DNA from: a virus
Taxonomy: Duplodnaviria > Heunggongvirae > Uroviricota > Caudoviricetes
Virus record (IMG/VR): IMGVR_UViG_3300029288_000136
Direction: 5' to 3' (one strand)
Length of the DNA stretch: 64,000 nt
Numbering within the stretch: the stretch's first letter is position 1; every line of letters begins with the position of its first letter. This document shows, piece after piece, positions 6,584-61,094 of this stretch. The notes below the pieces were generated by a model that saw only the letters and a list, made by a program, of their open reading frames with translations, was not told where the DNA came from and searched no databases. The position numbers and the translations under genes are program-made.

Positions 6584-6649
6584 TCATTTAATCAATCAAG
6601 CCAATGCAAACAAAGTAAGTAGAACTCTTACTACTTATTAATATCCTAA

Positions 6650-8012: not shown

Positions 8013-8224
8013 TTTATCTTAGTTAAGTTAACGTCATCTATTGAGACAAGTAATGAGATCCTATTTGATGAGTTCCATAACTTCCTCAACCAATCTCTCT
8101 GCCTAATAGCATCATCCAATGTAGGATACCAATTAGAATTTAAACGCCCATCTAATGATATCCATTGAACACAGAAAGGTAGATTGCCTTTACCTTCTTC
8201 CACATTAAGTTCATATTTAGCCAT
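8009..8224 (-). CDS. AP2-like DNA-binding domain protein, paralogue 2
   Basis: GNLPFCVQWISLDGRLNSNWYPTLDDAIRQRDWLRKLW, about 70% identical to 7188..7445. Confidence 0.35.
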   Translation of the reverse strand: MAKYELNVEEGKGNLPFCVQWISLDGRLNSNWYPTLDDAIRQRDWLRKLWNSSNRISLLVSIDDVNLTKIK

Positions 8225-8226
8225 TT

Positions 8227-8493
8227 TTATCTATACATCTGTTCAAACATTTCTTCATCAAGAAAACATTTTCCTTCAAGGAATATCTCTAAATTATCTC
8301 TTAATTGCTTAACTGCATCTAGTCTATCAATAGGTTTACCACAGCAATTACACACCACTTCATTCATACTGCATTCATCACATATTGTTTGTCTGATGTG
8401 TCCTTTTGATTTACTATTACACATACTGCAAACAAATTCATGTGATGTACTGAATCTTGCACCAACACATCCGCATTCTAGTGTAAATTCCAT
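8227..8493 (-). CDS. Cys-rich zinc-binding protein
   Basis: CGC...CSMC...CDEC...CNCCG. Confidence 0.35.
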   Translation of the reverse strand: MEFTLECGCVGARFSTSHEFVCSMCNSKSKGHIRQTICDECSMNEVVCNCCGKPIDRLDAVKQLRDNLEIFLEGKCFLDEEMFEQMYR

Positions 8494-8513
8494 CTTGTGT
8501 TTTTAATTGATTA

Positions 8514-8723
8514 TTATTTCCATTTATGTAAACCACACAATAGTTCAGTAAAGGAGCCTTCTTTGAATATCCACATAACTGCCTTAACACTGAATAATTC
8601 ACCATCAATCATAATTGAATCACCAATTCTTGGAATATCGTTCAATGAATGTTCCTCTGGTTCTCTAAGTCCTTCTGGATAGAATGCAAACGTAACTTTC
8701 ATCTTATAATTCAACATGATCAT
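8514..8723 (-). CDS. hypothetical protein
   Basis: 69-aa ORF in the chain. Confidence 0.3.
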   Translation of the reverse strand: MIMLNYKMKVTFAFYPEGLREPEEHSLNDIPRIGDSIMIDGELFSVKAVMWIFKEGSFTELLCGLHKWK

Positions 8724-8874
8724 CTATTTGGTCGGGTATGTTGTCCTCAACTGAGTCCTCATGTATGTAGCTTCTTAGATTGGCTCGTTGTTGTAGGATA
8801 GCATGGCACATAGGACATTCGCCATTTGGTGGAATGGTCCTATTGTGTATGTAACACATGTTCTTATATGCCAT
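8704..8874 (-). CDS. zinc-ribbon protein (start moved to internal Met)
   Basis: Contains CY..CPMCH. An internal ATG at 8872-8874 avoids overlap with the upstream mini-gene. Confidence 0.3.
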   Translation of the reverse strand: MAYKNMCYIHNRTIPPNGECPMCHAILQQRANLRSYIHEDSVEDNIPDQIDDHVEL

Positions 8875-8892
8875 GCTTTCTCCTCTTATATC

Positions 8893-9033
8893 TTTCCTTC
8901 TTTCTTGGCAGTGCACAATGGACAAAGCTGCTCTACTTCATATCTGCTCTTCTTCCCTTTGTTCTTAAAGGTCATCTCCTCTCCACACTCCTTACAGAGT
9001 GCTTTCCTTGGTTGAGTCACTGGCATTTTAATG
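8893..9033 (-). CDS. 46-aa zinc-ribbon mini-protein
   Basis: Translation MPVTQPRKALCKECGEEMTFKNKGKKSRYEVEQLCPLCTAKKEGKI. Too short for the ORF track. Confidence 0.3.
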
Positions 9034-18968: not shown

Positions 18969-19110
18969 AGTCTCACTCTTATTCTTTGTTTAACTGGTTT
19001 GCATTTATGCTCTTTCATCTCTCTTGGAGTTGGATTTAATAGTAATAACCCACATGACTTACATTTCCAGTTTACTCCAATTGTTAGTTGTTTCATCTTG
19101 CTCCTAAGTG

Positions 19111-19365
19111 TTATAACTCTAAAAGTAACTTTGCATCATTATTCCATGTTCCATCTTTGTTCTCACGCCATGACATGTCTATAAACAAATTCTTCAAGTC
19201 CAGAATGTAAGCAGATTTGTAGTGATGATTTGAGAGTTCTATGGCGATGGCTTCTGCTATTCCAGCAGTTTCAGGTTGTCCTCTTCTTTGATATATGTCT
19301 CTTTTATCTTCCATTGATTTGATATAATATATCTGGGCTTCTTTGTATTCATCCATTGTAATCAC
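19111..19365 (-). CDS. hypothetical protein
   Basis: 84 aa. Confidence 0.3.
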   Translation of the reverse strand: MITMDEYKEAQIYYIKSMEDKRDIYQRRGQPETAGIAEAIAIELSNHHYKSAYILDLKNLFIDMSWRENKDGTWNNDAKLLLEL

Positions 19366-19586
19366 TCCAATTTGATCTTACCTTGTTTGTATTGATGATA
19401 TAATCTGACAACCAATCCTTTGTCTCTTATAGCGATTACTTGATTGTAGGAGCGATCTATGAATTTGGAGATTAATTCTAAGACAGTGAACCATGTGAGC
19501 ATTATTCCAAGTAGGGATATACAGAGACAATCCAGGAAACCAAGGATTATCAGTGTATAGTAAATTGATTCGAGTATTGGGATCAT
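19362..19586 (-). CDS. small two-helix membrane protein (holin-like?)
   Basis: 74 aa with two hydrophobic helices and a charged C-terminus. Confidence 0.3.
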   Translation of the reverse strand: MIPILESIYYTLIILGFLDCLCISLLGIMLTWFTVLELISKFIDRSYNQVIAIRDKGLVVRLYHQYKQGKIKLE

Positions 19587-19828
19587 TCTAATTTCCTCTT
19601 TACATATTCAGCTCTTGCTCTTTGTTCCAGTTCTTCTGCTTTGGAGAGATCGAAGTTGAAGTATTCGAAGGCGGCTAGTATTTGAACTAGGGATTGAACT
19701 ACTGCTTCTTCCACTTCTTTTTGTGTTGTCAGTTCATGTGAGCAGCATCCGCAGCCAGTTGATCTGGCACTGAATCCTTCTTCATCTATTTTGTTATCTT
19801 TATTAGACCAGAAACTCATTAGTCCCAT
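19583..19828 (-). CDS. hypothetical protein
   Basis: 81 aa, CGCC motif. Confidence 0.3.
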   Translation of the reverse strand: MGLMSFWSNKDNKIDEEGFSARSTGCGCCSHELTTQKEVEEAVVQSLVQILAAFEYFNFDLSKAEELEQRARAEYVKRKLE

Positions 19829-20015
19829 TTTAGTTTTTATTTTTTATTCTCTTTGGACAATGATCTATATCGCAGAGACATAATACACCTGGGCCTTCAT
19901 GTCTTGCATAGCATATTGCAGCTTCCATTGTCTCATTTTTGTTGTGTATGATTTCTCTTGAAAGACAATCCTCATTTGAGGTGCTTATTATCCAAGTTAG
20001 TCCCATTTTGCTTGT

Positions 20016-21035
20016 TTAGATTGTAATGTCGTCCGCTTTAACTTTTTGCTCTTCATAGCAGCCAAGGGAATGTGCAAGCGTTTTAAGGTTATCCATGTGG
20101 AAGGTTCCCCATTGTCTCATAGCATTAATCAATGTAAGATCAATGGTTTCGGTCAATGAGTAGCCGCTGTTTAGTAGGTGGGCTGCTGTGATTGATTCTC
20201 TTGTGGTGGGGCGGTATGGGTATTCGTCTGTGCTTCTAATGTTCTCGAATAGCTTCAATACCTTAAGCAAGTCATCGCGGTGTTGTGATTCTAGTGTCAG
20301 CTTTCTTTCGACTATTTTGAGTTCGGTGAAGGCTGGGGGATAGTTGTAGACTAGGCGTGCTGAGAATCGTGAGAGTATTTGTTGGGGTAGTTCCTTTGCT
20401 CCAGGGCAGTCAAGGGGATTGATTGAGGCGGTGAAAAACCAGGAGGGTTTAGCGTGTATTGTTAGTCCTTCATAGTTGAGTTCTCGTCTGTCGTCTAGGC
20501 ATTCATTTAAGCGGATTAGGACATCTGGCTCGGATTGATTGATTTCATCTAGCATTAAGATTGAGCCTTCTTCCATTGAGAGGGGGAGTGGTCCTTTTTT
20601 CCAGTTGATGTTTCCGTCCTGTAAATCCAAGCGTCCAAGTAAATGCTGTTCTCTGCAGCGTAGTGAGAGGTTTAGTGAGTGTATGTTTTGGTTGTATTTT
20701 TCTGCCATTAGTAGAATAGAGATCGTCTTGCCACAACCAGGGGGGCCAATGAGTAGGGGGTTGATTCCTTTTTCATACAAGTGGCATAGTTTTCTGAAAT
20801 TGCCTTCCCAGTCGTAGAATTTGCCTCCGCTTAGGTCTTTGAGTATCCAGATTGCTCCAGAACGTATTATGATATCCTTCTGTTTTAGTGAGTCTAGTGC
20901 AGGGTAGATGTTTTGTATGGTGAGCGGTTCTGGGAGATTTAGGGGTTTGCTCCATTCTATGAGTTCTGTGGGTGAGCCTTTCTTGTGTTGGTCCAGTATT
21001 GATACCAGTATTCCTTCTATTTGTGCTTTATCCAT
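20016..21035 (-). CDS. MoxR-family AAA+ ATPase (CobS/NorQ/CbbQ-like)
   Basis: Walker A LLIGPPGCGKT and Walker B ILMLDEINQ. AAA_5-like, 339 aa. Confidence 0.75.
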   Translation of the reverse strand: MDKAQIEGILVSILDQHKKGSPTELIEWSKPLNLPEPLTIQNIYPALDSLKQKDIIIRSGAIWILKDLSGGKFYDWEGNFRKLCHLYEKGINPLLIGPPGCGKTISILLMAEKYNQNIHSLNLSLRCREQHLLGRLDLQDGNINWKKGPLPLSMEEGSILMLDEINQSEPDVLIRLNECLDDRRELNYEGLTIHAKPSWFFTASINPLDCPGAKELPQQILSRFSARLVYNYPPAFTELKIVERKLTLESQHRDDLLKVLKLFENIRSTDEYPYRPTTRESITAAHLLNSGYSLTETIDLTLINAMRQWGTFHMDNLKTLAHSLGCYEEQKVKADDITI

Positions 21036-33067: not shown

Positions 33068-33568
33068 AATATTAGATTTAGAAACTAAAGTATAAATAGA
33101 TAAGCAGTATTTATAGTTGAAAGAGTATGATAATATTAGAGGAATCCTGCAAAGCCTCGTGTCGGTTATAACATTGGTAGGTTATAAAATTGGGTCACTG
33201 GCTAGTTCCTTGTGTTCATCTAGTCCAGTGATCCTCATATTAGAATCAAGCATATATAAAATCAATCATATCTGTTTGTTTTTTCAATAAGGGATTCAAG
33301 CCTTAGAAGTTTGAAATCAATAGTCCTCTGGATATCTTTGAATACGTTGCGATCTGGATTGATAGCGCATAATATCGTGGTGCTGATTCACGAAATGCAC
33401 GAACTAGGGATAAAGCCAGATTTTAAAAATATATCATTATAATGTACTATTTTTTATAAAAACATATTGATTTATTAACCCTTGTGTGCTATAATATATT
33501 TGTTTGATACCCGCTATCGTTACTGTAACAGTGATGATAGGCTTAGATTACCGTTACATCTGTATATA

Positions 33569-35833: not shown

Positions 35834-37210
35834 TCATTCCTTCTTCTTTGTTTCGTGCTTTATCTCGTGCCTGCGCGTTATGGGCTCTACTCCGACAGCT
35901 TCGAATATCTTCGGCAGAGCCGCTGTTCCCTGCATCACGGTATTCAGGATGGATCCGCCAAGTCCCATGTCTGACGTATCCCCTGTCTGGACTATCGTTA
36001 TCTTGTCTCCGATGTTCTTCAGGGGCTCTGCTATTCTCTCGGCTATCAAAGGAAGCGTCTCTATCTTCATTATCTCAAGGCCGCTCTGGTTCAATTCCTT
36101 GTATGCTTCCGCCTTCTTCTGGACTCCTTCCGCTTCGGCTAGAAGCTTTTGTTTCTGTCCCTCCGCTTCGGCCAGTAATTTTGCCTTTATTGCTTCCGCT
36201 TCCCCGATCCCTTCCAGCTTCTTCTTCTCGGACTCTCCCGCCGCAATAGCGATCGTCTTGACTTTCTCGGCCTCTCCTTCAAGCTGCTGTATTTCCTTGT
36301 TTCGTTCGGATATCTCTACTTGTTTCTGCTTCTGTATTAGTTCGATCTTCATCTGCTCTTCTTTCAGTTTCTGTGTTTGTATGGCAGTCTCTATATCCTT
36401 TGCCTTGTCGGCCATGGCCTGCTGCGTGAATGTCTCCTGGTTGTATAGCGCCATCTTTATCTGTTTTTCTTTTTCGTATTCTGCTATCTTTGTCTGCGCT
36501 ATGTTCTCCTGCTCGCTTGCTTCCTGGTTCGCCTTGGCGGTCGCCTTCCGGGACTCGCTCTTCGCGTTGGCTTCGGCTATCTCCGCTGCTTTTATCTTTT
36601 CGGCAAGCTCCTTTGCGTAGAGGGACTCTATGTACCCTCTGCCGGTCTCTTTCTTTGTTGACGATGAATCGCTGATGTCCTTTATCGTGAAGGATACTAT
36701 CGAGAGGCCCATCTTCTCCAGGTCGTCTTTTGCGTTCTCAAGGACCCTTTTGTTGAAGCTTTCCCGGTCCTGTATCAATTCCTCGACTGTCATGTTGGCG
36801 CATATCGCCCTTATGTGGCCCTCCATTGTCTCTTCTATCTTCTGCATTATCCTTTCGGTCTCAAAGCCCAGGAATGATTTTGATACGTTGGCGTATCCTT
36901 CTTCGGTGTCCTGCAACTGTAATTGTGCGACTGCTTCCACGTCGACGGGAACGATAAGCTGAGTCTGCACGTTTTCCTTTACTATTGTGACGGTCATAAG
37001 CTGTTTTGTTATGGACCACGCTTCTTCCAGGACAGGGAATATGAGCGTTGCTCCTCCCGACACGAATCTTGTTCCTTTCCTTCCGGAGATCACCATAAGC
37101 TTTGACGGGGGTACTTTGATATAGTTCCTGCTCATAACATACGCTCCCCCCATGACCGCTATTGCTCCCCCGCCGACTATTATCGGCAGCACGAATCCGT
37201 CGATGTTCAT
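35834..37210 (-). CDS. SPFH/band-7 flotillin-like protein
   Basis: N-terminal TM helix plus SPFH-like domain, then a long EA-rich coiled coil (AEAEG repeats). 4-nt overlap with the upstream NfeD gene. Confidence 0.65.
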   Translation of the reverse strand: MNIDGFVLPIIVGGGAIAVMGGAYVMSRNYIKVPPSKLMVISGRKGTRFVSGGATLIFPVLEEAWSITKQLMTVTIVKENVQTQLIVPVDVEAVAQLQLQDTEEGYANVSKSFLGFETERIMQKIEETMEGHIRAICANMTVEELIQDRESFNKRVLENAKDDLEKMGLSIVSFTIKDISDSSSTKKETGRGYIESLYAKELAEKIKAAEIAEANAKSESRKATAKANQEASEQENIAQTKIAEYEKEKQIKMALYNQETFTQQAMADKAKDIETAIQTQKLKEEQMKIELIQKQKQVEISERNKEIQQLEGEAEKVKTIAIAAGESEKKKLEGIGEAEAIKAKLLAEAEGQKQKLLAEAEGVQKKAEAYKELNQSGLEIMKIETLPLIAERIAEPLKNIGDKITIVQTGDTSDMGLGGSILNTVMQGTAALPKIFEAVGVEPITRRHEIKHETKKKE

Positions 37211-37788
37211 TTTTCAGCCTCTCTTGATGCTTTTTTTACTTTCAACATGTCGCCGCATAGTCCGGCGACTATTACATTCGTTCCCTTGGGCAGGCTTTCG
37301 TCCGAGACCGCCAGTAAAGACTTATGGCTCCCGTCTACGAAAAGAACTTCCCCCTTGTCGCCCGCGCCCTTTATCTCCACTGTCACTACGCCCTCTTTTC
37401 CTATGAAATCCCTCAGCTTGCGTATAGAGCTTGGCGAATTGGAGAACACCTTGGACATTAGATACGTTGATGAGACGGTTATCGCTAAAGAGATAAAAAG
37501 CGACGCAGGAACCAGGACAAAAGGACTCATTTCAGGATACGCGAGCAGGAGATATACCCCGGCCCCTCCGAAAGTCGTGCAGAACGCGCCCATCGCGAAT
37601 GTGCCAAAGCCGTGGAAAGACACTCCGTCGAATGCATCCCCCAGGAGGGATATGCCATCCAACGCGTTGCCCACGCCTTCCAATACCCCTTCCAGGGCGT
37701 CGCCTAATATGTCGGCAAAGAAGCTGACAACTGTGATCAATAGCCCCATCAAGAATATTATTCCGAAAACTAGTAGAATATCTATCAT
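37207..37788 (-). CDS. NfeD-like membrane protein
   Basis: Multi-TM N-terminus plus a C-terminal OB-like segment (GKEGVVTVEIKGAGDKGEVLFVDGSHKSLLAVSDESLPKGTNVIV). Classic operon partner of SPFH proteins. Confidence 0.5.
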   Translation of the reverse strand: MIDILLVFGIIFLMGLLITVVSFFADILGDALEGVLEGVGNALDGISLLGDAFDGVSFHGFGTFAMGAFCTTFGGAGVYLLLAYPEMSPFVLVPASLFISLAITVSSTYLMSKVFSNSPSSIRKLRDFIGKEGVVTVEIKGAGDKGEVLFVDGSHKSLLAVSDESLPKGTNVIVAGLCGDMLKVKKASREAEK

Positions 37789-48990: not shown

Positions 48991-49209
48991 TTAAGGTTTG
49001 TAACGCGGTTCGATTGTGGTTCCGAATCGTTTGAGTCTGCATAGGGAGTTGATTTGATTGATGCGGAATATAAGGGAACGTGCTTGTTTTACTGTCATGC
49101 CTTCGATTAACTGTCGTTCATGTTCCATGAGGCCGTCAGTGTTTACTGGTTGGTTGTCTGCTTCAAGTTCGCGTTGTCTCATCTGTTTGATTGCATCGGA
49201 GAAGGTCAT
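48991..49209 (-). CDS. hypothetical protein
   Basis: 72 aa. Confidence 0.3.
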   Translation of the reverse strand: MTFSDAIKQMRQRELEADNQPVNTDGLMEHERQLIEGMTVKQARSLIFRINQINSLCRLKRFGTTIEPRYKP

Positions 49210-49493
49210 TTTATTTTTTGTAGTCTGGAGAGCACTTGTATCTGAATAAATCTGGTTGGAATTGGGGGTTGTCTTTTTTGAAGACGAGGCAGAGAGCGTC
49301 CAGTTGTTGTTCTATGCTTCCAGTGCGGAAGGCTTTGGCTACCAGTTCGTAATCTTTGCGGCTTGTCATTTTGATTTGTTTAGTTTACGTAAGGCAAAGT
49401 ATCATCCAAGATATATTCCAAGGAAAGAGCCAAGGTATATTCCAAAGAAAAAGGCAAGTGACCATTGAATCAGTGTAATTTGTGCGATTTGAT

Positions 49494-49916
49494 TCATTTT
49501 TGTTTGTTTAATTTGATTCTATTGATTTTTTCTTCTTGTAACTCTGCAAGTATTGTTTTAAGGTAATCTACCTCTGATTGTATTAGTGATATCATATATG
49601 AGTCAGTTGGGTCTATTGTTGTTTGTAGTTTTCTTTTTCCTTCTAAAACGTATTTTGTGTGTATTTTGTCCCAAGGCGTATTTACACAATGTCCATCTCT
49701 TAAGCGTATTGGACAATATTCGCATTTAAAATTTACGAAGAATGTTAAGCATAAAGGGCATGTATCAGTGTAGATTTCAGGGGAGTATGGTTTTTTGGCA
49801 TTTGGCTTTAAGTTGTCTTTGATCCAGTGAGAGATGCTTTGCTTGGTTGCCTCGATTGCTTTGTTAAGGTCTTGGTCTGTGTGTGTTGTTGTGTATTTGG
49901 TTGTACTGATTGTCAT
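49494..49916 (-). CDS. Cys-rich hypothetical protein
   Basis: CPLCLTFFVNFKCEYCPIRLRDGHC. Confidence 0.35.
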   Translation of the reverse strand: MTISTTKYTTTHTDQDLNKAIEATKQSISHWIKDNLKPNAKKPYSPEIYTDTCPLCLTFFVNFKCEYCPIRLRDGHCVNTPWDKIHTKYVLEGKRKLQTTIDPTDSYMISLIQSEVDYLKTILAELQEEKINRIKLNKQK

Positions 49917-49926
49917 TTTTATTTGT

Positions 49927-50121
49927 TTATTTTGATTCGTTTAAGAGTGATCTTGCGTGTTGGATTATTTTGGTTGCGGATTGCTTGAGTATTCCTATTT
50001 CTTCAAAGTCAAGATATGTGGATTCTGAGACATCTTGGATTGAGTAGATTCCTTGGGAGTTTAGGGCTTTCTCAAGTTTTGGTCCGATTCCTGCTATTTC
50101 TTTTAGGTCGTATTCGTCCAT
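49927..50121 (-). CDS. helix-hairpin-helix DNA-binding mini-protein
   Basis: IAGIGPKLEKAL HhH motif. Confidence 0.4.
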   Translation of the reverse strand: MDEYDLKEIAGIGPKLEKALNSQGIYSIQDVSESTYLDFEEIGILKQSATKIIQHARSLLNESK

Positions 50122-50331
50122 TTTTGTTGTAACTTGATTTTATCTGGTTTTAAGATTAATTGTTTTTATAAAGGAATTGGCTTCGTGTTCGTAGTATATG
50201 AATTCGATTGATGATTCGATCAAGTAGTTTGATTAATTCATTCCATGTTTGTCGTAGTCGTAACAGGAGTGTCCATGTATGTCTAAATCTTGTTCATTCA
50301 TTATAGTATTTTAAGTGTTTGTGTGAATTGA

Positions 50332-50751
50332 TTAGAGGGGTTTGTATGAGCAGATGGGGTAGCGTCTGTCTGCTTTGGAGGTGTATGGTTTGAGGTTGTA
50401 GATGCGGCTTGGGGGCCTGGGTTCAAGGGGGTTGCGGTTTAGGTCTTTTTTCTTGCGTTTTAGGTAGTCTATTGCGTCTTCTTTTTGTGTTGAGTGGAAT
50501 TGTTTTAGGGTTTTGACTGTGGTGGGGGTTATGTGGAGTATTTGGTAGACTAGTTGGTTTGGGCGTAGTAGTAGGGGGAGGATTTTTAGTGAGTCGTTTA
50601 GGCCTAGGCGGTAGTAGCCGTTGAATTCGCCTTTTTTATCGTATGTTTCGATCCAGTTGGTTGAATGCTGGATTTGCGTTGTAAGTGGTTCGATTAATGG
50701 TGTGGTCATTGGTTCCTTTATTGGTTCCTGCTCTTTAATCAGTGTTTCCAT
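50332..50751 (-). CDS. hypothetical protein
   Basis: 139 aa, P/T-rich. Confidence 0.3.
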   Translation of the reverse strand: METLIKEQEPIKEPMTTPLIEPLTTQIQHSTNWIETYDKKGEFNGYYRLGLNDSLKILPLLLRPNQLVYQILHITPTTVKTLKQFHSTQKEDAIDYLKRKKKDLNRNPLEPRPPSRIYNLKPYTSKADRRYPICSYKPL

Positions 50752-50758
50752 GTTAGAT

Positions 50759-50956
50759 TTATCTTAATTTGCAGTACTCTTTGAATCTGGGTGTGTGTTT
50801 ATGAAGTAGTGAATCATATTTGGAGTATTTATCAGATAATGGGTGTTCATTGTCTCTTATTCCAACTAGGCGGTTATAGAGAGTCATGAAGTAATGTAAA
50901 CTTGCCTCACTTAAAGCATTGTCGTATTCTTTTAGTTCTTGTTCAAATGTTTCCAT
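50759..50956 (-). CDS. hypothetical protein
   Basis: 65 aa. Confidence 0.3.
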   Translation of the reverse strand: METFEQELKEYDNALSEASLHYFMTLYNRLVGIRDNEHPLSDKYSKYDSLLHKHTPRFKEYCKLR

Positions 50957-50962
50957 GTTAGA

Positions 50963-51178
50963 TTAAGGCTTTGTAATTGTTGCTCTTATGGTGTATGTTG
51001 ATTCGTCAAAGGTTCGTGTGTAGGTGTAGAGTTTCCATGTGCCTGGGAGGAAGCCAAGGCCTTTTAGGATTCTGTTGGCGGCTCCTTTGAGTGTTTTTAG
51101 ATCTCTGATGAAGATTCCGTTGTCAGAACCCAGTCCTGCTAGTTGTCCGTTTATGTGCCTTTCAGCAAAGTAGTTCAT
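50963..51178 (-). CDS. hypothetical protein
   Basis: 71 aa. Confidence 0.3.
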   Translation of the reverse strand: MNYFAERHINGQLAGLGSDNGIFIRDLKTLKGAANRILKGLGFLPGTWKLYTYTRTFDESTYTIRATITKP

Positions 51179-51542
51179 GTTAGAGGTTATTGCTTAGGAT
51201 ATATCTTGTGTATCTCATCTCATCATCTAACTGTTCATATACTGAGTTCTTGAATTGGTTGTCTTTGCTTGGGATTCTGTCTAATAGGATTGTTAAGGCA
51301 TTCATTATGGCTTCTTGATTCCTGAGTATCTGTTTGGGTGTTGGGTCCATGTTATGGTTTAGATGGTGATGAGTTTATTTGATTGATTAAATCCTTGCAG
51401 CCTTTAAGGATTGTTGACTTCTGTAGTTCTGATAGTTCTTGTGAGTCAATTGTTATTGTATTTTGTCCCTGGTATATGCAGGTTATTGTATTGTTTTTAT
51501 TTGTGTATTTGCCAAAAGTAATTGGGTCCATGTTAGAGTTTA

Positions 51543-51860
51543 TTATTGACTATTTTCTTGTAGTTTTTCAAGTATGGTGTCATCTGTGAAGGCTATCCGG
51601 GTTTTTAGGGCTTGGTCAGCTGGCGGGCCTGAGAAGATACGTTTGAAGGCGGATTCTTTAAGTACGACAAGGCGGCCTGTGTTGGGGTTTATTAGGAGGA
51701 TGCCTTCAGTTAAGTATTTGGTTTGGCATTCTTCGCATACTTGGGGTAGGGTTGAGTCTTTAGGAGGGAGTTCGTATTTAGTGTTTTTTCGTGCTATGAG
51801 GATTACTTCCCTGTGGCATATCATACAGTCTTTTACCAGTGTTGTTTCTCCAAGTTTCAT
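51543..51860 (-). CDS. zinc-ribbon protein
   Basis: CMICHREV...CEECQTKY. Confidence 0.35.
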   Translation of the reverse strand: MKLGETTLVKDCMICHREVILIARKNTKYELPPKDSTLPQVCEECQTKYLTEGILLINPNTGRLVVLKESAFKRIFSGPPADQALKTRIAFTDDTILEKLQENSQ

Positions 51861-52220
51861 TTTGTTTGGTTTATTTGTTATGTTAAGGTAATTGTGGGGA
51901 TAGTTTGGGGATAGTTGTTGGAAAGATGCGGGAAAGATTGACTCAAATTTGGGTAGGTACTCGGATTTGAGCAGGTACTCATTTTTGGGTAATTACTCAA
52001 AAGTGAGTAGGAAAAGTGTTAGAAAGTGGACTCACTTAATTCCAAGATAGGTGAGGACTTGGACATTAAGTGAGTGTAAGTGTAATAGGTATCAAGAGAA
52101 CCATATTGATGTATTTTAATATATCAATAAGGGTTTATTATTGGGTTTTTTCTTAAGTTTATTCAAATAAATTGAATAAAAGAAAAACAATAAATAAAAG
52201 AAGAATTTTTGTTCGTTTAT

Positions 52221-52831: not shown

Positions 52832-53245
52832 TTATTTCAGGGTTAATGCTCCCAGGACTTTTATCTGGGTTTCCGCCTGTCCACCGAGGTACTTGATACC
52901 GCTTAACCACTCGGTCGGATACTGCGTTGGATTTTCAAACGCAGCCAGAGCAGTCTTGTTCATTGCGTCTATTTGCTCCTCGGTGTAGACGATTCCCACT
53001 GCTGCTGATTGAGTCACTATTGACTTAACTTTGGCTAATGGGTCGCCTGTTTTTACGTCGCATACTCGTGCGACTTCGGTCAGCACTTTGACTGCTGCTG
53101 TCAGTTCTTCTTTGCTTATGCCGTGAAGTTCAATCTTTGTCGCAAGTGTTGCGGCTGGGATTGACTTCTTTTTCTCGTCTGTTTCTGTTGCCATTTTTCG
53201 CTCAATTAATTGAGAGGGAAATGGAGAGTTAATTATTTGGAACAA
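52832..53245 (-). CDS. hypothetical protein
   Basis: 137 aa. Confidence 0.35.
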   Translation of the reverse strand: MFQIINSPFPSQLIERKMATETDEKKKSIPAATLATKIELHGISKEELTAAVKVLTEVARVCDVKTGDPLAKVKSIVTQSAAVGIVYTEEQIDAMNKTALAAFENPTQYPTEWLSGIKYLGGQAETQIKVLGALTLK

Positions 53246-53284
53246 GTGTGAGTCGTCAATGTAGGCAGTGTGCCTCTATTGGAT

Positions 53285-53500
53285 TTATCTTCTGAGAATC
53301 AATCCGAGCAATCTGTCGGGGTCGAAGTCGGACATCTTTATCAGTTGCCTCTCGCTCATCCCTGTCATCATGGAGATTTCCTTAAGTGGGATCTTCGATG
53401 TGCTTCCATTGGCTTCCAGTACAAAGACAGGCTCCCTGCTTCTTGTTTTGATTGGCAGGTCGCTCACCCTTATCTGGATGCCCCTTGTTGTATAGGTCAT
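53285..53500 (-). CDS. HTH-like regulator candidate
   Basis: ISMMTGMSERQLIKM is an HTH-like segment. First gene of the minus block, next to the long non-coding region. Confidence 0.3.
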   Translation of the reverse strand: MTYTTRGIQIRVSDLPIKTRSREPVFVLEANGSTSKIPLKEISMMTGMSERQLIKMSDFDPDRLLGLILRR

Positions 53501-53913
53501 CCTTAAAGTCTGTTAAGTTGGATATATCTGAGAATTCCTTGGAGATTATCTTTATGAATCTTCTTATCATTCAGAATTTTCTGAATTAATTTATTCTTAT
53601 CTCCATGTCTTAGAAGTGTTATTAACACGTAGTCAGGGATGGATTCAAGATTTATTTCCATGTTCATATCAGTTCCACTATGTAGAACATTAATTGAATC
53701 AGTTTCATTTTATTTTTTTAGAATCATTGATTAAACATTTTTTGCATGTAACTGCTTTTTTTGTTCTTGAAGCATTATTTATTTCGTTAAGACTAAGCCC
53801 ACATGCTATTTTATTGTCTCCGATAATTAAGTGAATAAATTTGTTTTTCATTTTGAGTATACTTTAGGAATCAAGTCTCTTACATTGGGTACAGTCCATT
53901 TTTGAGAAGAAAA

Positions 53914-53939
53914 TGATTAACTCATTTTTGAGTTAATCA
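53914..53939. promoter_or_regulatory. perfect 11-bp inverted repeat with 4-nt spacer (operator- or terminator-like)
   Basis: TGATTAACTCA-TTTT-TGAGTTAATCA. A CATTTTTGAG direct repeat is also present. Confidence 0.4.
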
Positions 53940-53999
53940 AATTATGTGCATGTTTACTTCATACATCATCCATTCTGTGCCTGAGCATATCTGTATGTT

Positions 54000-54780
54000 G
54001 GCTATGTAAGCACAAGCATCCAAATATCTCTGAGCAAGTCGAGAGAATTCCATTGTTTAGTTCACCTTAAAACAGTTGCTTGGCGGCATAGTGATTGAAC
54101 ACACATGCCTTAACCAGCCCGTGCAGTCTTCCAATTAAGGCTTGACTGCACGCTGTGGTATTTAGAAGCAGCACCATGTTTACTCCTTTCACCATATTGG
54201 CTTATGGATGCCAACAGCTTTCCCGTTGAATGCAGAACAGCTGAATAAGTCAGCCCGATTCAAAGGTTATACTATGTGGCAGTGCTGCCCGTATGCCTGC
54301 ATTATTTAAATACTTGCCCGCTCTGCCTCCGACAGCCGACAGTCTAAACTGTAGTAGTCATGCGTCCTCCCCGTTTTTGCTATTATCTCCAATCTTCCAA
54401 GGACCGAGTAGTTACTGACTACATCACCCGGTTAGTTCCTTGACCGTCAAGGAGAGCAATTCGTAAGAGCCGACGCTCAAGAGTATAGAGCCTCAAGTTT
54501 GTTTTTTGCGCTTTGCGACACGAGAGCCAGGCTAACAGCTCCCGTTTTTTTGCTCAATCTCATACAACCTCTGAGATTGTCGCACCGCTCCCGCTATATG
54601 GGAGATTCGGAGTCACTCTTATAGGATACAGGATAACAGGTCGCTGCCCGCATTTCCTCCTATGATAACCATTAGACGATTAGGATATAAGAGCGATTAC
54701 GACCAATTTCCCAAACCAAAACCAGCACCCTGCGAATTCACAGAGCAAAAAGATTAGAAGGGGTAGTTACACTATTTTTT
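54000..54780. other. GC-richer, hairpin-rich non-coding region upstream of terL (candidate ncRNA or packaging/ori region)
   Basis: No ATG-initiated ORF of 60 aa or more in any frame, although base composition is more balanced than the flanks. Contains an 8-bp stem-loop CAATCTCA-n9-TGAGATTG at 54555-54579, among others. Confidence 0.35.
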
Positions 54781-54785
54781 CTCAG

Positions 54786-54836
54786 TCTGACCTTTGACTT
54801 TTTCTTATTCTGATCTTTGATTATTCTGACCTTTGG
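54786..54836. repeat. three iteron-like 12-bp repeats TCTGA(C/T)CTTTG(A/G)
   Basis: Copies at 54786, 54809 and 54825. Confidence 0.45.
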
Positions 54837-54945
54837 TAAAAATCGGACTCAAACATTAGAAGCATAAATACTTATACTCTCATAATTACACATTCCAAAC
54901 AATTAATCTTAACATATACTTAATCAACCAAAAATACAAACCACA

Positions 54946-55083
54946 ATGCTCACCAACATAAGAACCCAAATTAAAACAAACCCAGCAGAACCCAATCTCA
55001 TCTTTGATCCTATAACACTAATGACTCTACACTTATTATCAATAAACAAAACCAAATATTGCATCCATCAATCACAATGCTAA
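54946..55083 (+). CDS. upstream mini-ORF 1, paralogue of the terL N-terminus (45 aa)
   Basis: MLTNIRTQIKTNPAEPNLIFDPITLMTLHLLSINKTKYCIHQSQC. The stop TAA follows the next ATG within CAATGCTAA. Confidence 0.35.
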   Translation: MLTNIRTQIKTNPAEPNLIFDPITLMTLHLLSINKTKYCIHQSQC

Positions 55084-55211
55084 CAAACATAGACCTACAA
55101 ATCAAAACAAGCCTCACAACCTCAAACCACATCATTGATCCAATAACATCAAAGACCCCACACCATCTCCAAATAGATAAACCCAAATACAATTACCACC
55201 CACAATGCTAA
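55077..55211 (+). CDS. upstream mini-ORF 2, paralogue of the terL N-terminus (44 aa)
   Basis: MLTNIDLQIKTSLTTSNHIIDPITSKTPHHLQIDKPKYNYHPQC. Its first 11 residues are nearly identical to the TerL start, and its stop overlaps the terL ATG. Confidence 0.35.
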   Translation: MLTNIDLQIKTSLTTSNHIIDPITSKTPHHLQIDKPKYNYHPQC

Positions 55212-56749
55212 CCAATATCGACTTACAGATCAAGACCGGACTAACAACCTCAGACTTCATAATAAAAGGAGCCACAGACTTCAAATACTGGGCCGAAACC
55301 CTATACGACTACACAATCAAACCATACCACATCGAATGGGCCAACAACCTAACACAACAAACACGCTCCTCAACCATCGCAGCAAGAGGACTAGGCAAAT
55401 CACTCATACTAGGAACCCTAATGCCCATCTGGCTAAGCTTCTACGACTACACACCACAGACAACAAACCTAAAAGGAATAGTAATAGCAGCCCAAAACCT
55501 AAGCCAAAGCACTAAACTAATGATGAACATCCGAAACCACATCAACAAAACAGAACTAACACAACTACTCATACCAAAAACAGGAGACTACACCTGGACC
55601 AAAAAAGAAATAAACACCACAACCGACTGGAAAATAAACGTACTACCATACAGCGACAACGCAAGAGGACCACACGTCCCATACCTCCTAATGGAAGAAG
55701 CAGGTCTATTCACCGACCTAGAAATATACACAGACGTATTCCTACCAATGATCCAAAGAGCCAACGGCAACGCAATGTTATTAGGGACCCCAAAAACAGC
55801 ATACGACCTGCTAGCAAGAAGCCAAATACCCGGAAGCGGATACCAGATAAGCAAATACCCCCTAATCAAAAACGGAGAATGCATCCTACCAGAAATATTC
55901 CCCCCAGAACGAATACAACAAATACGAAAAGACATCGGAGAACTAAGCTTCGCAAGAGAATACCTACTCGAAATAGTAGGAGAAGGACGAGCAATAAAAA
56001 CACAACACATAATAGACAGCCTAGACCCAACAGAAACCTTCACCACACTAGGAACCGAAACAGGAGAATACTACATAGGAGCAGACCTAGCACTATCCCC
56101 CACAGGAGACTACACAGTACTAACAGTCATAGAACGCTACAATGGACGCTACCACATCCGCAAAATAGAAGAATACCGCGGCATGAGCTTCGACAACCAA
56201 ATAAACACCATAGCCACCCTATACAAACAATACAACCCCGTCACCCTACTAATAGACGAAAGCAACTTCGGAGGAATAGTAACCCAAAAACTACAAACAC
56301 AATACAACATACCAGCCCAAAGCATCAAATTCCTCCCAACCACCCGCAACACCATGCTCATAAGACTAATAAACACCTTCACATCAAACAAAATAACCAT
56401 ACCACGAAACCCCAACTGCCCCACCACCCTCACACTAACAGACCACCTACTAGACCAAATAAGCAGCCTACACAGCGACAAAACACGCAGCGGCCAAGAC
56501 ACCTACAAAGCATCAACAAAACACGATGATTCTTTAATGTCCCTAGCACTAGCCCTACACGCAGCAGGAGACACAGACAACTACCAAGAAACAGCCATAC
56601 TAACAGCCAAACCACCAACAAACCAAACACAACAAAACAAGATAATACAAGACAACTACTATGAAACAATACAAAAAATGAGACAAAAACCAATAAAAGA
56701 AACCAAAGAATACGGATCAGCCTTCAACAAATGGCTACCACACAACTAA
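55205..56749 (+). CDS. terL: terminase large subunit
   Basis: Deviant Walker A AARGLGKS, Walker B LLMEEAG. C-terminal nuclease-domain acidic motifs are IGADLALSP, LLIDESNFGG and KHDDSLMSLALALH. 514 aa, immediately upstream of the portal candidate. Confidence 0.8.
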   Translation: MLTNIDLQIKTGLTTSDFIIKGATDFKYWAETLYDYTIKPYHIEWANNLTQQTRSSTIAARGLGKSLILGTLMPIWLSFYDYTPQTTNLKGIVIAAQNLSQSTKLMMNIRNHINKTELTQLLIPKTGDYTWTKKEINTTTDWKINVLPYSDNARGPHVPYLLMEEAGLFTDLEIYTDVFLPMIQRANGNAMLLGTPKTAYDLLARSQIPGSGYQISKYPLIKNGECILPEIFPPERIQQIRKDIGELSFAREYLLEIVGEGRAIKTQHIIDSLDPTETFTTLGTETGEYYIGADLALSPTGDYTVLTVIERYNGRYHIRKIEEYRGMSFDNQINTIATLYKQYNPVTLLIDESNFGGIVTQKLQTQYNIPAQSIKFLPTTRNTMLIRLINTFTSNKITIPRNPNCPTTLTLTDHLLDQISSLHSDKTRSGQDTYKASTKHDDSLMSLALALHAAGDTDNYQETAILTAKPPTNQTQQNKIIQDNYYETIQKMRQKPIKETKEYGSAFNKWLPHN

Positions 56750-57474
56750 AACACCAAACTAATCAAGCCACACAATCAACTGACACAATCAACTGACACA
56801 ATCAACTGACACAACTAACAGAGACAACTAACAGAGACAAACAAACCAAAAAACCAACCAAGACAACACAAGTAAACAAAGACAACCAAACACACAACAT
56901 ACCAATATGAATAAGCAAAGACAACTAACACAACTAACAGAAACAACACAACCAAACCACGCAACTAAGCAGACAAAGATAACTAAACCAAACAACAAAC
57001 TAACACAACCAAAACAAGACAACTAAAACAAGACAACTAAACCAAGACAATTAGATCATACAATAAAACCATACAACCAAACCAAGACAGATAAACTAAA
57101 AAAACTAACTAACTCAACTGTTAAGAATCAAAACAACTAACAGAGATAACATAACCAAATCACACAATTAATCAAAATAACTAAACAACACAATTAGATC
57201 ATACAACTAAACCATACAACTAACTAACACAACAAACCAAATAAAACAAATCAAAAACAACCAAACACAAACCAATCAGAAAAATTTAATATAAATACTA
57301 CAATACATATACAACTAATATATACCATACAAAACTAATTAATAAAAAACCAAATAAACAAGCACTAAAACAAACAGATATCAAAACAAATAAATACAAA
57401 AACAAATAAAAACCAAATTAATAAAAAACAAGACTAAAAAACAACAATAACATACAATCAATAAATATTACAAG
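56750..57474. repeat. A/C-rich low-complexity spacer with tandem repeats
   Basis: Plus strand is almost entirely A and C. CACAATCAACTGA x3 (56771-56809), CAACTAACAGAGA x2, ACAAGACAACTAAA x2, and ACAATTAGATCATACAA at both 57051 and 57191. Confidence 0.6.
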
Positions 57475-58893
57475 ATGACAACACCAAATCAAAAAACAAA
57501 AACCCAAAGAAGATCACAACCAATATCAACACACACACAAAACATACAAAACACCGGATTCCAAGGAATAATACCCACACTGCAAAAATTCATGTACGGA
57601 GAACAAAAAACAGACAACACCCCCGAACCGGAAATAGGAAACAAAGGATACAGCACCGGACTAACACTAAACAGGGCAAGCAAAGCAGACCTGGAAGCAC
57701 TATACATAAGCGACCCAGTAATATTCAACGGAATAAACACCTACTACAAAACAATCCTCTCAAACCCCCCAACCCTGACAAACGGATCGGAAAAAGACCA
57801 AAAAAAACTAGACCAATTCAGCAAACAAATAAAACTACAAAGAAGCATAATACCAAGCATAACCCAACACAGCCTCATATACGGAACCGCGTGGAATGAA
57901 AAAATCTACAACAAAGCCCCCAGAGGAAACATCCTACACAAAATACTCGGAATACCCACAAGAGACCCCAAACTAATGGACTTCCTAAGACACCAAAACA
58001 CCAACTACATAAGATTCAACGAAGTAGGAGAACCGGAAGGATACTGCCAATACATAGCTGACGGAATACACTACGAAGGAACCGACACCATAATAAACGG
58101 AACAAACAGCCTAAAAGCCATACCCTTCACCCCAAACAAAATAATGTGGACCAACTACATAGCAGTAGGAGACACCTATGAAGGAATAGGCCTGGTCGAA
58201 CCAATACTAAACAGCTCACTAGACAAAAACAACGCCCAAAAAGGATTCAGCGCATACATCTACCGACTAGGACACGGACTACTAGGCATCAAAGCAGGAA
58301 ACGAAAGATTCATACCCTCAACCGACATGATACACAAAGCCATACAGATCTTCAGCAACATAAACACCGAAACAGTAGTCTCCTACCCCTACTACCTACA
58401 ACCCGAAATGATCGAACCCAAAAGAGGAATAGAACGACTAAGAGAACAAGTAGACTACTTCATAGACCAACAAATAGCCGGAATCGGTTTGCCAGCATGC
58501 TTAGTAACAGGCCAAGGAACTTCTATGAACCGCAGCATCCTGGACAAAATGATGATGCTATTCTACCAAAGCCTCACCATGATCCAAAACAACATATCTA
58601 TAAGCATAGAAGACAACCTATCCCAAGAACTAATGGACATATACGGACTAGACAACCCCCCAAGACTAGAATGGCCCGACATAAACATAGAAAGCATGGA
58701 CAGCAAAGCAAACAGGCTAAGCACATACGCAAAAGCAGGCCTGCTAGGAGCCACCCCAATGCTGCAGACATACATACGACACTCAGAACACCTACCCCAA
58801 GAAGGAGACAACACGCCCAACACGCCAGACACCCAATCAAACGAAGACCAGGAGAACCACAAATCAAAGCTGGATTCAATCCTCGACTTCTAA
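57475..58893 (+). CDS. portal protein candidate
   Basis: 472-aa ORF directly after terL in head-module order. Size and position only, no motif checked. Confidence 0.5.
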   Translation: MTTPNQKTKTQRRSQPISTHTQNIQNTGFQGIIPTLQKFMYGEQKTDNTPEPEIGNKGYSTGLTLNRASKADLEALYISDPVIFNGINTYYKTILSNPPTLTNGSEKDQKKLDQFSKQIKLQRSIIPSITQHSLIYGTAWNEKIYNKAPRGNILHKILGIPTRDPKLMDFLRHQNTNYIRFNEVGEPEGYCQYIADGIHYEGTDTIINGTNSLKAIPFTPNKIMWTNYIAVGDTYEGIGLVEPILNSSLDKNNAQKGFSAYIYRLGHGLLGIKAGNERFIPSTDMIHKAIQIFSNINTETVVSYPYYLQPEMIEPKRGIERLREQVDYFIDQQIAGIGLPACLVTGQGTSMNRSILDKMMMLFYQSLTMIQNNISISIEDNLSQELMDIYGLDNPPRLEWPDINIESMDSKANRLSTYAKAGLLGATPMLQTYIRHSEHLPQEGDNTPNTPDTQSNEDQENHKSKLDSILDF

Positions 58894-58907: not shown

Positions 58908-61094
58908 ATGCCAAACCCCCAAACTAACACCAAACCACCACATGAAAACAATGAGAAAATAGCGGAGTTGGTTCACTCCAACTCCGAAATAGGCTCGTCA
59001 GGATCCTCACCAACATCTTCCCCCGATTCCTCCGTCTCGGAAGCATCCTCGACTACGGAACCTCGCTCAGACTCGGCTTCATATCCTTCCTCGTTACAGG
59101 GATTGGTTCACGCCAATCCCACGTTACCTACGGAGTCGGTCTCTAAGACCTCCTCGACGTTACAATTACAAGATGAATCATCTGTGAATGTTACATCAGA
59201 CGTTACATTACGAGAACAAATAGCCAATCAATCCCATACTCAATGGTCTAAATGGATGGAATATCTATTCAATGAATCAAATCAATTAGAAGATGGAACA
59301 GTAAGCATCCCACCAACTAAAGTAAGCAGATGGAAGAGACAAATAGTTACAGATTACAAAGACTTAACTATAGAAGAGCAGAATAGTGACTTAAAAGAAG
59401 CAGATATCTACATACAAATCTTTAATTCATACTTACATAATTCCAAAGAGACCTTAGATAATGCAGAGTTAGTTCAATCCAACTCTGAAATGAATGAATC
59501 AAGTGAAAAACCACTGAATAAAGAAGAAAAGAACGCTCCGACCAACTGCGAACTAATGAAGCCATTCACCCCAATGCAGATGACAAACAAACAAATGAAC
59601 ATAGAAGACATCAATTACTACTTCAACGACAAATACTCAGAGAAATACATGCTATTCAACCAAACAAACAAAGGAACACACATATTCCTACATAAAGGAA
59701 GCAGATGGAACGGTTCAACAGTAAAGATATACAACGACAACAAAGAAGAGATAACTGACAGATACCCAGACATAGTATACCAAGCACCTGAACTGACAGA
59801 TTACTCCATAATAGTGGAAGGAATAATAGAAAACAATGGAACACTAGACTCTGGAACTCTAAATGGAACACCAAAAGGAACAGTAAACTCTGGAACACAG
59901 AATGAAACACTAAATGAAACACTAAATGGAACACTACAACTATACGACATACTATACTACGACCAACCGATGAACAGATCACAGCTGATAGAAAGACTAA
60001 GAGTATTATTCATGAATATAAAAGACACTGAAAACATAAAGAAGAACAGACCAATACCTGAGAAAAACATCAAACACATGATCAAACTAGCTAAAAAGAT
60101 GGGAACAGGCATAATAAGACACCTAGACTCAGCCTACCATATCAATGAACATGGAAACGACAAAGGATTCCAACTCTCAGACACTTCTGCAGCCTCCTCC
60201 ACTAACACTGATACAATATATAATAATATACATACAATAGGCAACAACACTTCTACAATACTAAAAGAGATATCAGACAAATTACCACAAACATTCATAT
60301 CAGAATTAAGCAAAGCAAAAGACAACTGGATACCATTCACACTATCAAAGCATTACAGAGGACACAAAGAAGGAAATAATATAATAATGAATAGCGTACA
60401 CCAGGATCTAAGATTCAACATCCCCAATTCAACAAACGTACAAGCAATAACGATACTAACACCAGGAAACAATGAAAATCAGGACCTACTAACAATAGGG
60501 GAAGCAGCTAGAAATGGAAAGATAAGATTCCTGGTAAAAGAACCAGAACCAATACAAAGCACAAAACCAACATACTACCAAGAGAATAACCCAGGAGCCA
60601 CAACAGTACCTGGATTCAGCATAGTAGTAGCAGAAGGCCAATACACGCTCCTGGAATCAACAGATACCAAGCTACATATCGAATTAAACTGCATAGAGTC
60701 CTCATCCAGTGAAGGAGAGCATACAGTAAGAAAAAACAAGGAAGTCATAGATAAAGCGCTGGAAGCAGGGATCAAAGTAGACGAAATAGACTGGAGTACT
60801 TTAAAAGACATATCAGGGGTGTGGAGCCTAAGCGAAGCGCATATGACAGACACTACAATACTACTTATGAGGCTTCTAAACAGGGGAACAGCAAGATTAC
60901 TTGAAAAAGTAGACAAAACATGGATGGAACAAGTCAAAAAAGGACACATACACAAGACCGGAGTAAACAAGGAAAAACTATACAAAATAGCCCTTATGAG
61001 CGAAGAAGGATACTACAGACCAGAGATAGCCAAAGAGATAGGAACAAACAAGGACACAGTATACAGATGGCAGAAAGCATTAGGATACTACTAA
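58908..61094 (+). CDS. large head-module protein with Ser-rich linker and C-terminal HTH
   Basis: Start set at the first ATG after the portal stop, because the tracked ORF start at 58497 lies in an alternative frame of portal. GC-rich Ser/Thr/Pro linker (SSGSSPTSSPDSSVSEASSTTEP). C-terminal EIAKEIGTNKDTVYRWQKALGY is HTH-like. Confidence 0.45.
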   Translation: MPNPQTNTKPPHENNEKIAELVHSNSEIGSSGSSPTSSPDSSVSEASSTTEPRSDSASYPSSLQGLVHANPTLPTESVSKTSSTLQLQDESSVNVTSDVTLREQIANQSHTQWSKWMEYLFNESNQLEDGTVSIPPTKVSRWKRQIVTDYKDLTIEEQNSDLKEADIYIQIFNSYLHNSKETLDNAELVQSNSEMNESSEKPLNKEEKNAPTNCELMKPFTPMQMTNKQMNIEDINYYFNDKYSEKYMLFNQTNKGTHIFLHKGSRWNGSTVKIYNDNKEEITDRYPDIVYQAPELTDYSIIVEGIIENNGTLDSGTLNGTPKGTVNSGTQNETLNETLNGTLQLYDILYYDQPMNRSQLIERLRVLFMNIKDTENIKKNRPIPEKNIKHMIKLAKKMGTGIIRHLDSAYHINEHGNDKGFQLSDTSAASSTNTDTIYNNIHTIGNNTSTILKEISDKLPQTFISELSKAKDNWIPFTLSKHYRGHKEGNNIIMNSVHQDLRFNIPNSTNVQAITILTPGNNENQDLLTIGEAARNGKIRFLVKEPEPIQSTKPTYYQENNPGATTVPGFSIVVAEGQYTLLESTDTKLHIELNCIESSSSEGEHTVRKNKEVIDKALEAGIKVDEIDWSTLKDISGVWSLSEAHMTDTTILLMRLLNRGTARLLEKVDKTWMEQVKKGHIHKTGVNKEKLYKIALMSEEGYYRPEIAKEIGTNKDTVYRWQKALGYY

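Follow-up and report, generated by a model that had tools for sequence, protein, structure and literature searches.

Outside ribosomes and introns, very few known classes of structured RNA exceed 500 nt; several of these are carried by phages and have functions that are unexplained. Among these are GOLLD and ROOL, large "ornate" non-coding RNAs that form Rfam families and often reside on phages or prophages. Other viral RNAs act as regulators, such as the untranslated early-operon leaders of the phage P4 immunity region (CI RNA) and the put antitermination RNAs of HK022, while the packaging RNA (pRNA) of the phi29 type, 120-174 nt long, goes together with a nuclease-free ATPase and protein-primed DNA; transcripts of the ColE1 RNA II type are primers. 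Here we analyse a 64-kb stretch of DNA (64,000 nucleotides, hereafter the window) out of an 84.9-kb metagenomic contig of a tailed virus (Caudoviricetes; IMG/VR record IMGVR_UViG_3300029288_000136). We propose that the interval upstream of its large terminase gene, terL, is probably a divergent control region, whose core at 54080-54747 encodes a multi-branched minus-strand RNA of at least ~670 nt, antisense in direction to terL. Closest in kind to it are GOLLD/ROOL and the long regulatory leaders of phage early operons, and it is a member of neither. Such an RNA would be a tractable example of a new large RNA, since it belongs to an uncultivated tailed-virus lineage, has clear domain boundaries and occupies a defined position, at the head of a leftward transcription unit and beside operator-like iterons.

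The candidate RNA resembles GOLLD and ROOL in its size class (~0.6-0.8 kb), viral carriage, multi-branched shape, long-range closing helices and a GC content above that of its surroundings; unlike them, it has no Rfam match (E up to 10) and no adjoining tRNA genes, it is known from three or four contigs of one lineage, and its position suggests the first part of an mRNA. An Rfam scan had been proposed in a preliminary description of this DNA, and no family matched the region: Rfam 15 at gathering threshold gave no match in the whole window, and with the cut-off relaxed to E = 10, 53400-55300 and two related contigs (L038 and L066, see below) gave only noise of the small nucleolar RNA type, outside the RNA core. 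The library includes GOLLD, ROOL, HEARO, OLE, pRNA, group I and II introns, RNase P, tmRNA and riboswitches. A tRNA/tmRNA scan of the window found none. With P4 CI RNA and HK022 put, the candidate shares a place at the start of a leftward, presumably early unit and before small open reading frames (ORFs), which makes control at the RNA level plausible; however, it is several times longer, has no sequence or structure similarity to them, finds no complementary targets elsewhere in the window (chance 12-mers only) and contains no identified terminator-antiterminator alternative. Like phi29 pRNA, it is a structured viral RNA near a packaging ATPase gene in a genome without a recognisable small terminase (TerS), whereas its length (~670 nt), its opposite strand, the nuclease domain of TerL and the lack of an Rfam match set it apart; neither a nuclease-free ATPase nor a 120-174-nt pRNA fold is found here. 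The likeness to ColE1 RNA II, i.e., a structured transcript of several hundred nt heading towards an AT-rich stretch, is an analogy only, and an origin, an RNase H site and an antisense regulator have no support in the window. Covariation-predicted candidate structured RNAs upstream of large-terminase genes have been reported from IMG/VR, and these are short, lie at most 25 nt upstream of the gene and are on the same strand (PMC10690425). The RNA proposed here is likewise virus-encoded, near terL and recognised by covariation, but it is antisense in direction, 0.45-1.1 kb away from terL and much larger. Four IMG/VR scans gave no match for its lineage.

The evidence for conservation comes from L038, one of 41 loci that a terL alignment retrieved from JGI metagenomes. 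L038 is a 1086-bp contig whose terL N-terminus is 87% identical to that of the window and which carries 877 bp of upstream sequence; it aligns with window positions 54080-54950. In 723 aligned columns the two sequences reach 69% identity, uninterrupted matches of 13-30 nt alternating with variable blocks, whereas in the adjoining terL codons, taken as a neutral proxy, third positions are 57% identical and four-fold sites agree at 12 of 26 (46%). Since unconstrained sites are thus near saturation while the upstream sequence stays at 69%, the region appears to be non-coding yet under purifying selection. Moreover, mismatches are spread evenly over the three phases in every ungapped block, with no codon periodicity, and most indels (10, 42, 7, 3, 3, 7, 3, 33 and 1 nt in one sequence; 4, 1, 1 and 10 nt in the other) are not multiples of three. 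On this alignment, 54080-54747 is conserved above the neutral level and bears no coding signature.

RNAalifold, applied to the minus-strand alignment, predicts a multi-branched fold of 165 pairs in 31 helices, 28 pairs being changed on both sides and 24 on one side, all of them still pairing; when the 3' partners were slid by 1-3 columns as a control, just 0-2 double changes were left. The consensus energy gives z = -7.0 on the minus strand vs -3.7 on the plus strand (100 column shuffles keeping identity and gap pattern), and G:U cells in consensus pairs number 49 of 330 vs 23 of 264. Conservation without coding and compensatory pairs above controls, both features of structured non-coding RNA, were therefore found for two diverged sequences. 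An independent test, in which the window minus strand was folded alone and its pairs were then checked in L038, is free of consensus bias: 27 of the 39 doubly changed pairs also pair in L038, against a null pairing rate of 0.367 (p = 3.7e-5). In these comparisons, the minus strand clearly gives the stronger signal, and the predicted helices are kept by compensatory changes. The strongest support lies in the 3' domain (Table 1), whose helices also span 54085-54109, 54120-54152, 54214-54275 and 54167-54289; the other three domains (54357-54480, 54476-54623 and 54613-54747) are collectively referred to as the central and 5' domains. The claim of the preliminary description that the interval may encode a large structured RNA is supported by conservation, 28 compensatory pairs, strand-asymmetric z-scores and the lack of a coding signal, and is extended by the assignment to the minus strand.

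The structured-RNA reading is well supported for a two-sequence comparison; nevertheless, several observations weigh against it. The covariation signal comes from only two diverged sequences, as L066, at 97.7% identity, adds very little. In the single-sequence folds, one-sided changes show no pairing enrichment, which is expected because an 800-nt single-sequence fold contains many wrong pairs, and the z-scores of such folds are modest (-2.9 for the window and -4.2 for L038 on the minus strand; -2.6 and -2.4, respectively, on the plus strand). The helices are complementary on both strands, and the strand call consists of the G:U asymmetry and the z difference. Transcription of the RNA and both of its ends are predictions, the family is tiny, and two micro-ORFs led by Shine-Dalgarno (SD)-like motifs, starting at ATG 54177 and TTG 54557, are partly conserved in L038.

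Regarding distribution, the carriers are the window contig, L038, L066 and probably the contig of P0002, which is the sole close full-length terL relative among 5.8 billion proteins (81% identity) and which, by its gene calls, has a matching ~1.07-kb gap upstream of terL. The neighbouring 71-aa protein, used as a query, led to L066, which matches window positions 54554-53271 at 97.7% identity and is unrelated beyond. Inside the RNA it differs from the window in three places, two of which are compatible with the minus-strand pairs of the consensus fold (A:U becomes G:U through A54545G, and G:U becomes A:U through G54175A), whereas G54536C breaks a consensus pair; by eye, an adjacent 2-nt insertion could re-register this hairpin. 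L066 was dropped as a third covariation sequence, being too similar (at most three informative sites). Where terL identity drops to 30-44%, relatives share no nucleotide similarity with the window upstream of the gene; BLASTN found nothing resembling the interval in front of terL in two 42%-identical relatives (L001 and L003), a BLASTN search of INPHARED phages gave no match, and the first 120 terL residues, used as a protein query for further short contigs, returned nothing useful. Among four conserved patterns scanned in IMG/VR by exact and gapped motifs, three had no match at all, and the matches of the CACGAGAGCCAGGCTA motif in three contigs were rejected since these contigs are unrelated. 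Two covariance models, one for the central domain (R1) and one for the 3' domain (R2), were applied to 55 terL-relative loci and recovered only the sequences they had been trained on; as nothing was found beside these more distant terL loci, the RNA appears to be specific to one lineage. An analogous RNA was looked for in two distant pairs: L003/L052 gave a weak signal (z = -3.4 and -2.9) that did not discriminate the strands, and L009/L010 gave no structure signal upstream of terL, so a structured RNA is not demonstrably family-wide.

Three further observations concern the RNA sequences themselves. The 33-nt insertion of L038 with its flanks (L038 264-329) repeats the ACUCCGAAU...CGGUG...AAAACGGG motif of the central domain, hence part of the RNA seems to have grown by internal duplication. 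L066 (1-57; 1343-1910) leaves the window abruptly inside the RNA, at 54554; its contig also ends there, so that the departure may stem from assembly. In place of 45 nt of the window (53226-53271), L066 has ~570 nt with two extra small genes, and its substitutions cluster beside both breakpoints, which looks like mosaic recombination. CGGG is significantly enriched on the strand of the RNA in the window (10 copies against 2.6 expected) but not significantly in L038, and this lead was dropped.

The direction of the putative transcript agrees with its setting: the minus strand is that of the adjacent gene block, and the sequence downstream offers both an ORF led by an SD motif and a T-run preceded by a stable hairpin. 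We propose that leftward transcription of the RNA would begin within, or a little to the left of, the region of the iterons and promoter-like box (about 54750-54840), would run into the SD-led 38-aa ORF and would end at, or be modulated by, the palindrome and T-run at 53914-53939. This palindrome may form a terminator-like hairpin ending a unit of RNA and 38-aa ORF, or else be an operator. Because the transcript inferred in this way runs into the ORF and palindrome, the RNA could be either the long structured leader of a leftward transcription unit or a stand-alone RNA released from that unit. The iterons, lying between the RNA and the promoter-like box of terL, would then serve as a DNA-level operator at which a regulator sets the balance of leftward and rightward transcription. 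Our best guess is a regulatory or scaffold role at the RNA level in the leftward, presumably early programme rather than a role in packaging; packaging or replication roles seem less likely.

Several alternatives have to be weighed against a minus-strand RNA. The conserved hairpins might instead function at the level of DNA, either as an origin of replication (with the iterons and the AT-rich 53670-53990) or as a packaging (pac) or cohesive-end (cos) site. The iterons are indeed unique to the locus and conserved, a stretch with a GC content of 0.30 adjoins, the position is that of a gene-orientation switch beside terL, and the helices are complementary on both strands, with z = -3.7 even on the plus strand. 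Nested and long-range helices with arms up to ~400 nt apart are, however, unlike protein-binding palindromes, one strand gives a much stronger fold signal, rich in G:U pairs, the iteron segment itself has no fold signal, and the separate repeat array between terL and the portal gene is at least as good a pac or origin candidate. As for an iteron-type origin, iterons are present, the AT-rich stretch is ~0.8 kb away from them, and neither an initiator nor a TerS was matched among the adjoining ORFs (Pfam, PHROGs). We consider a purely DNA-level element unlikely. The packaging-replication control region of the preliminary description accordingly keeps a weak foundation in the iterons and the promoter-like box, both conserved in L038, and nothing ties it to packaging or replication. 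Even less readily do we see the conservation as that of a cluster of very small minus-strand genes (26-42 aa), whose peptides, or leader peptides in translation-coupled attenuation, would be under selection. SD-like motifs do stand at the right spacing before TTG 54557, ATG 54177 and ATG 54053 (38 aa), and a hand count of 14 differences in the 54177 ORF gives a ratio of non-synonymous to synonymous differences (pN/pS) of ~0.3, a mild synonymous excess. Yet these ORFs span less than 40% of the conserved core, and no block shows codon periodicity. The two SD-led ORFs inside the core fare differently: the TTG 54557 ORF (26 aa) is kept in L038 as 27 aa, where a 3-nt indel preserves the frame and the stop position is unchanged, but 11 of its 26 residues are changed, about what unconstrained drift would give at that nucleotide identity; the ATG 54177 ORF, whose SD motif and start overlap helices as a leader-peptide attenuator might have them, is truncated in L038 (25 aa), compensatory stem changes alter its residues, and its start is ATA in L066 (a GTG remains), a change that improves the base pair. 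SD use in the genome is also low (24 of 114 starts), thus the purine-rich motifs in the RNA may be structural. These putative micro-ORFs may be incidental, or they may serve a mechanism linked to translation.

It is very unlikely that this RNA stands alone and has its own function, as a new class of large viral RNA; such a class would come in two versions, to which we jointly give this same low standing, namely DNA recognition or scaffolding for a terminase without a small subunit and, less extreme, a higher-order RNA particle. Such particles have reportedly been described recently for other ornate phage RNAs. Still more improbable is a stand-alone packaging RNA that replaces the missing small terminase or resembles pRNA. 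It would fit the position next to terL and the lack of a recognisable TerS in the interval, or at the usual position across the virus family; but the RNA is on the opposite strand, in a leftward unit that looks early rather than late, the nuclease domain of TerL is normal, TerS proteins are often too divergent for recognition, and there is no match in Rfam, which includes the phi29 pRNA family. Since the covariance models found no RNA beside the more distant terL relatives, it cannot be a general partner of the terminase. The preliminary description saw no TerS here, and a profile search for a TerS-like gene, on which it had let this claim depend, gave no match among the small ORFs of the interval (Pfam, PHROGs). 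No conserved small gene was found directly upstream of terL in 16 relatives either; the ORFs there are mostly mutually unrelated, have no counterpart in the window and include, for example, a Hjc resolvase and a Cas4-like protein. The absence of a recognisable TerS is, as far as gene content tells, a property of the whole virus family and not special to the window genome, which corrects the idea that the interval hides or substitutes for a small terminase. Lowest of all we place decaying or neutral DNA (a dead gene or insertion remnant) with hairpins by chance; a composition unlike the flanks and a narrow distribution would suit it, whereas conservation exceeds the neutral proxy and includes perfect 30-nt runs, compensatory changes are far above controls, and no stretch translates to a recognisable protein. 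We therefore retain the minus-strand structured RNA as the preferred reading of the core.

The extent of the gene-free DNA can now be restated. On neither strand does the interval 53571-55009 (1439 bp) contain an ORF of at least 60 aa; it is the largest such gap in the 64 kb (runner-up 455 bp), and a public gene call on the same contig leaves 53661-55205 empty; reading through any single stop codon opened no long ORF in the interval. The 1.4 kb of non-coding DNA described earlier holds in this respect and is overstated at its left side, where small genes and ORFs fill 53503-54053. The left boundary had been taken from a 62-aa ORF that is probably spurious and overlaps the true last gene; the called genes at this edge are 53285-53500 (71 aa) and 53503-53661/53667 (52/54 aa). 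Because the latter reaches 53661/53667, the first ~95 nt of 53571-54945 are coding and, given the 54-, 48- and 38-aa ORFs to the left, the part free of convincing genes shrinks to about 54054-55204. A 48-aa gene is called at the equivalent relative position in both the P0002 contig and L066, and the P0002 contig also has a called gene of the same length (38 aa) at the relative position of the 53937-54053 ORF. Neither Pfam (48-, 54- and 71-aa ORFs) nor PHROGs (38-, 42-, 48-, 54- and 71-aa ORFs) gave a match. A GC-richer core full of hairpins, as described previously, is confirmed by composition (GC 0.475 at 54080-54747, against 0.303 at 53668-54053, 0.328 at 54748-55204 and 0.389 for the whole window), its bounds being 54080-54747 instead of 54000-54780.

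Table 1. Coordinates of the candidate RNA, its predicted helices and neighbouring features in the window.
Feature	Position	Strand	Basis or remark
Candidate conserved structured RNA core, 668 nt, GC 0.475	54080..54747	minus	L038 homology, consensus fold, z-scores
RNA 3' domain, strongest support	54080-54297	minus	z = -10.2 minus, -6.3 plus
RNA domain	54357-54480	minus	z = -4.9 minus, -1.2 plus
RNA domain	54476-54623	minus	z = -2.3 minus, -1.7 plus
RNA domain	54613-54747	minus	z = -3.0 minus, -0.8 plus
Helix, 12 bp, 4 compensatory	54260-54275 with 54214-54229	minus	consensus fold
Helix, 5 bp, 3 compensatory	54250-54254 with 54240-54244	minus	consensus fold
Helix, 9 bp, 4 compensatory	54100-54109 with 54085-54093	minus	consensus fold
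Helix, 9 bp, 2 compensatory	54144-54152 with 54120-54128	minus	consensus fold
Helix, 8 bp, 3 compensatory	54421-54430 with 54405-54412	minus	consensus fold
Long-range helix, 10 bp, 1 compensatory	54465-54476 with 54362-54371	minus	consensus fold
36-aa ORF (ATG 54177) in 3' domain, AAGGAG upstream; probably not a conserved gene	54067..54177	minus	L038, L066 comparison
Last called gene of leftward block, 52/54 aa	53503..53667	minus	ORF list; public annotation L004 8299-8457
48-aa ORF, two cysteine pairs (C-x29-C-x2-C context), probably a small gene	53705..53851	minus	called in P0002 contig and L066
Perfect 11-bp palindrome TGATTAACTCA AAAA TGAGTTAATCA, then T-run	53914..53939	minus	downstream of 38-aa ORF
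38-aa ORF, AGGTGA (SD-like) 8-9 nt before ATG	53937..54053	minus	ORF list
Three iterons TCTGA(C/T)CTTTG(A/G) (TCTGACCTTTGA), start spacing 23 and 16 nt	54786..54836	plus	repeat and alignment
Conserved promoter-like box AAGCATAAATACTT(A/C)TACTCT	54860..54880	plus	window/L038 alignment
Two diverged tandem copies of terL 5' end with upstream box (units 54942-55072, 55073-55200)	54942..55204	plus	
terL, large terminase, RNase H-like nuclease domain	55205..56749	plus	Pfam Terminase_6C, E = 5e-11; homologues
Mu-type portal	57475-58893	plus	Pfam; then head protease and major head protein

To the right of the RNA core, the iterons and the repeats of the terL leader were located where they had been placed before. 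The iteron copies (54786-54797, 54809-54820 and 54825-54836) are the sole matches at no more than one mismatch in the 64 kb, and L038 keeps two of the three. The alignment-fold z of the segment 54746-54829 is about 0, and since no RNA structure signal is present there, the iterons look like a DNA-level protein-binding site. The promoter-like box lies in L038 31 nt upstream of the terL ATG, a spacing that would suit a TATA-like promoter with a leaderless or near-leaderless terL mRNA. In the window, a ~130-nt unit made of a similar box and the first ~30 terL codons has been duplicated twice, yielding three copies in total at 67-78% identity; the extra copies of the terL start remain open for 45 and 44 codons, the stop of each overlapping the ATG that follows (ATGCTAA). 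L038 has a single terL start without tandem copies. With such an arrangement, the triplicated start (54942-55211) may work by coupled re-initiation or through stacked promoters. Another gap that is AT-rich and free of ORFs, at 33068-33481, contains two facing TATAAATA-type boxes (33088 plus, 33105 minus) that resemble the terL box and is probably a further divergent promoter region.

The minus strand holds nearly all genes from ~6650 to 53667, hence the interval is the divergence point between this leftward block and the rightward head module. The product of terL is identical to a protein in NCBI from a metagenome-assembled genome (MAG) labelled Candidatus Paceibacterota, and the contig is binned with Paceibacterota, whereas the closest cultured phage terminases are only 24% identical. 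Of the three terL relatives found in reference genomes, two belong to MAGs with the label "archaeon" and one to a MAG labelled Dojkabacteria; in one relative, the Hjc resolvase directly upstream of terL is of archaeal type.

Some other features of the window and its relatives were recorded. The 725-bp gap between terL and the portal gene (56750-57474) has no ORF, is extremely A/C-rich on the plus strand and carries tandem repeats of ACACAATCAACTG (x3.5, perfect), ACAACTAACAGAG (x2.3) and AAGACAACTAAACC (about x10). The array may bind protein, possibly as pac or an origin, and a 108-aa gene is called in the equivalent gap of the P0002 relative. Strand composition is strongly biased at 55000-58000 and 49000-52000, where the coding strand is A- and C-rich; in the late module, AT skew rises to +0.79 and GC skew falls to -0.87, and some late-gene stretches are almost without G and T. 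After the portal gene, 58908-61094 encodes a 728-aa protein with a weak ATP-dependent DNA ligase domain and a C-terminal helix-turn-helix (HTH_23, faint Terminase_5), and relatives have a protein of 730-885 aa at the equivalent position. The terL of L003, a 48%-identical relative (6403-9018), is split by an intein with a LAGLIDADG endonuclease. Finally, the window encodes, at 17208-21035 and 35834-37788, a MoxR-type AAA ATPase with a VWA protein, and an SPFH/flotillin and NfeD pair; the virus further has a Cas4-like PD-(D/E)XK nuclease and a dual-specificity phosphatase-like protein.

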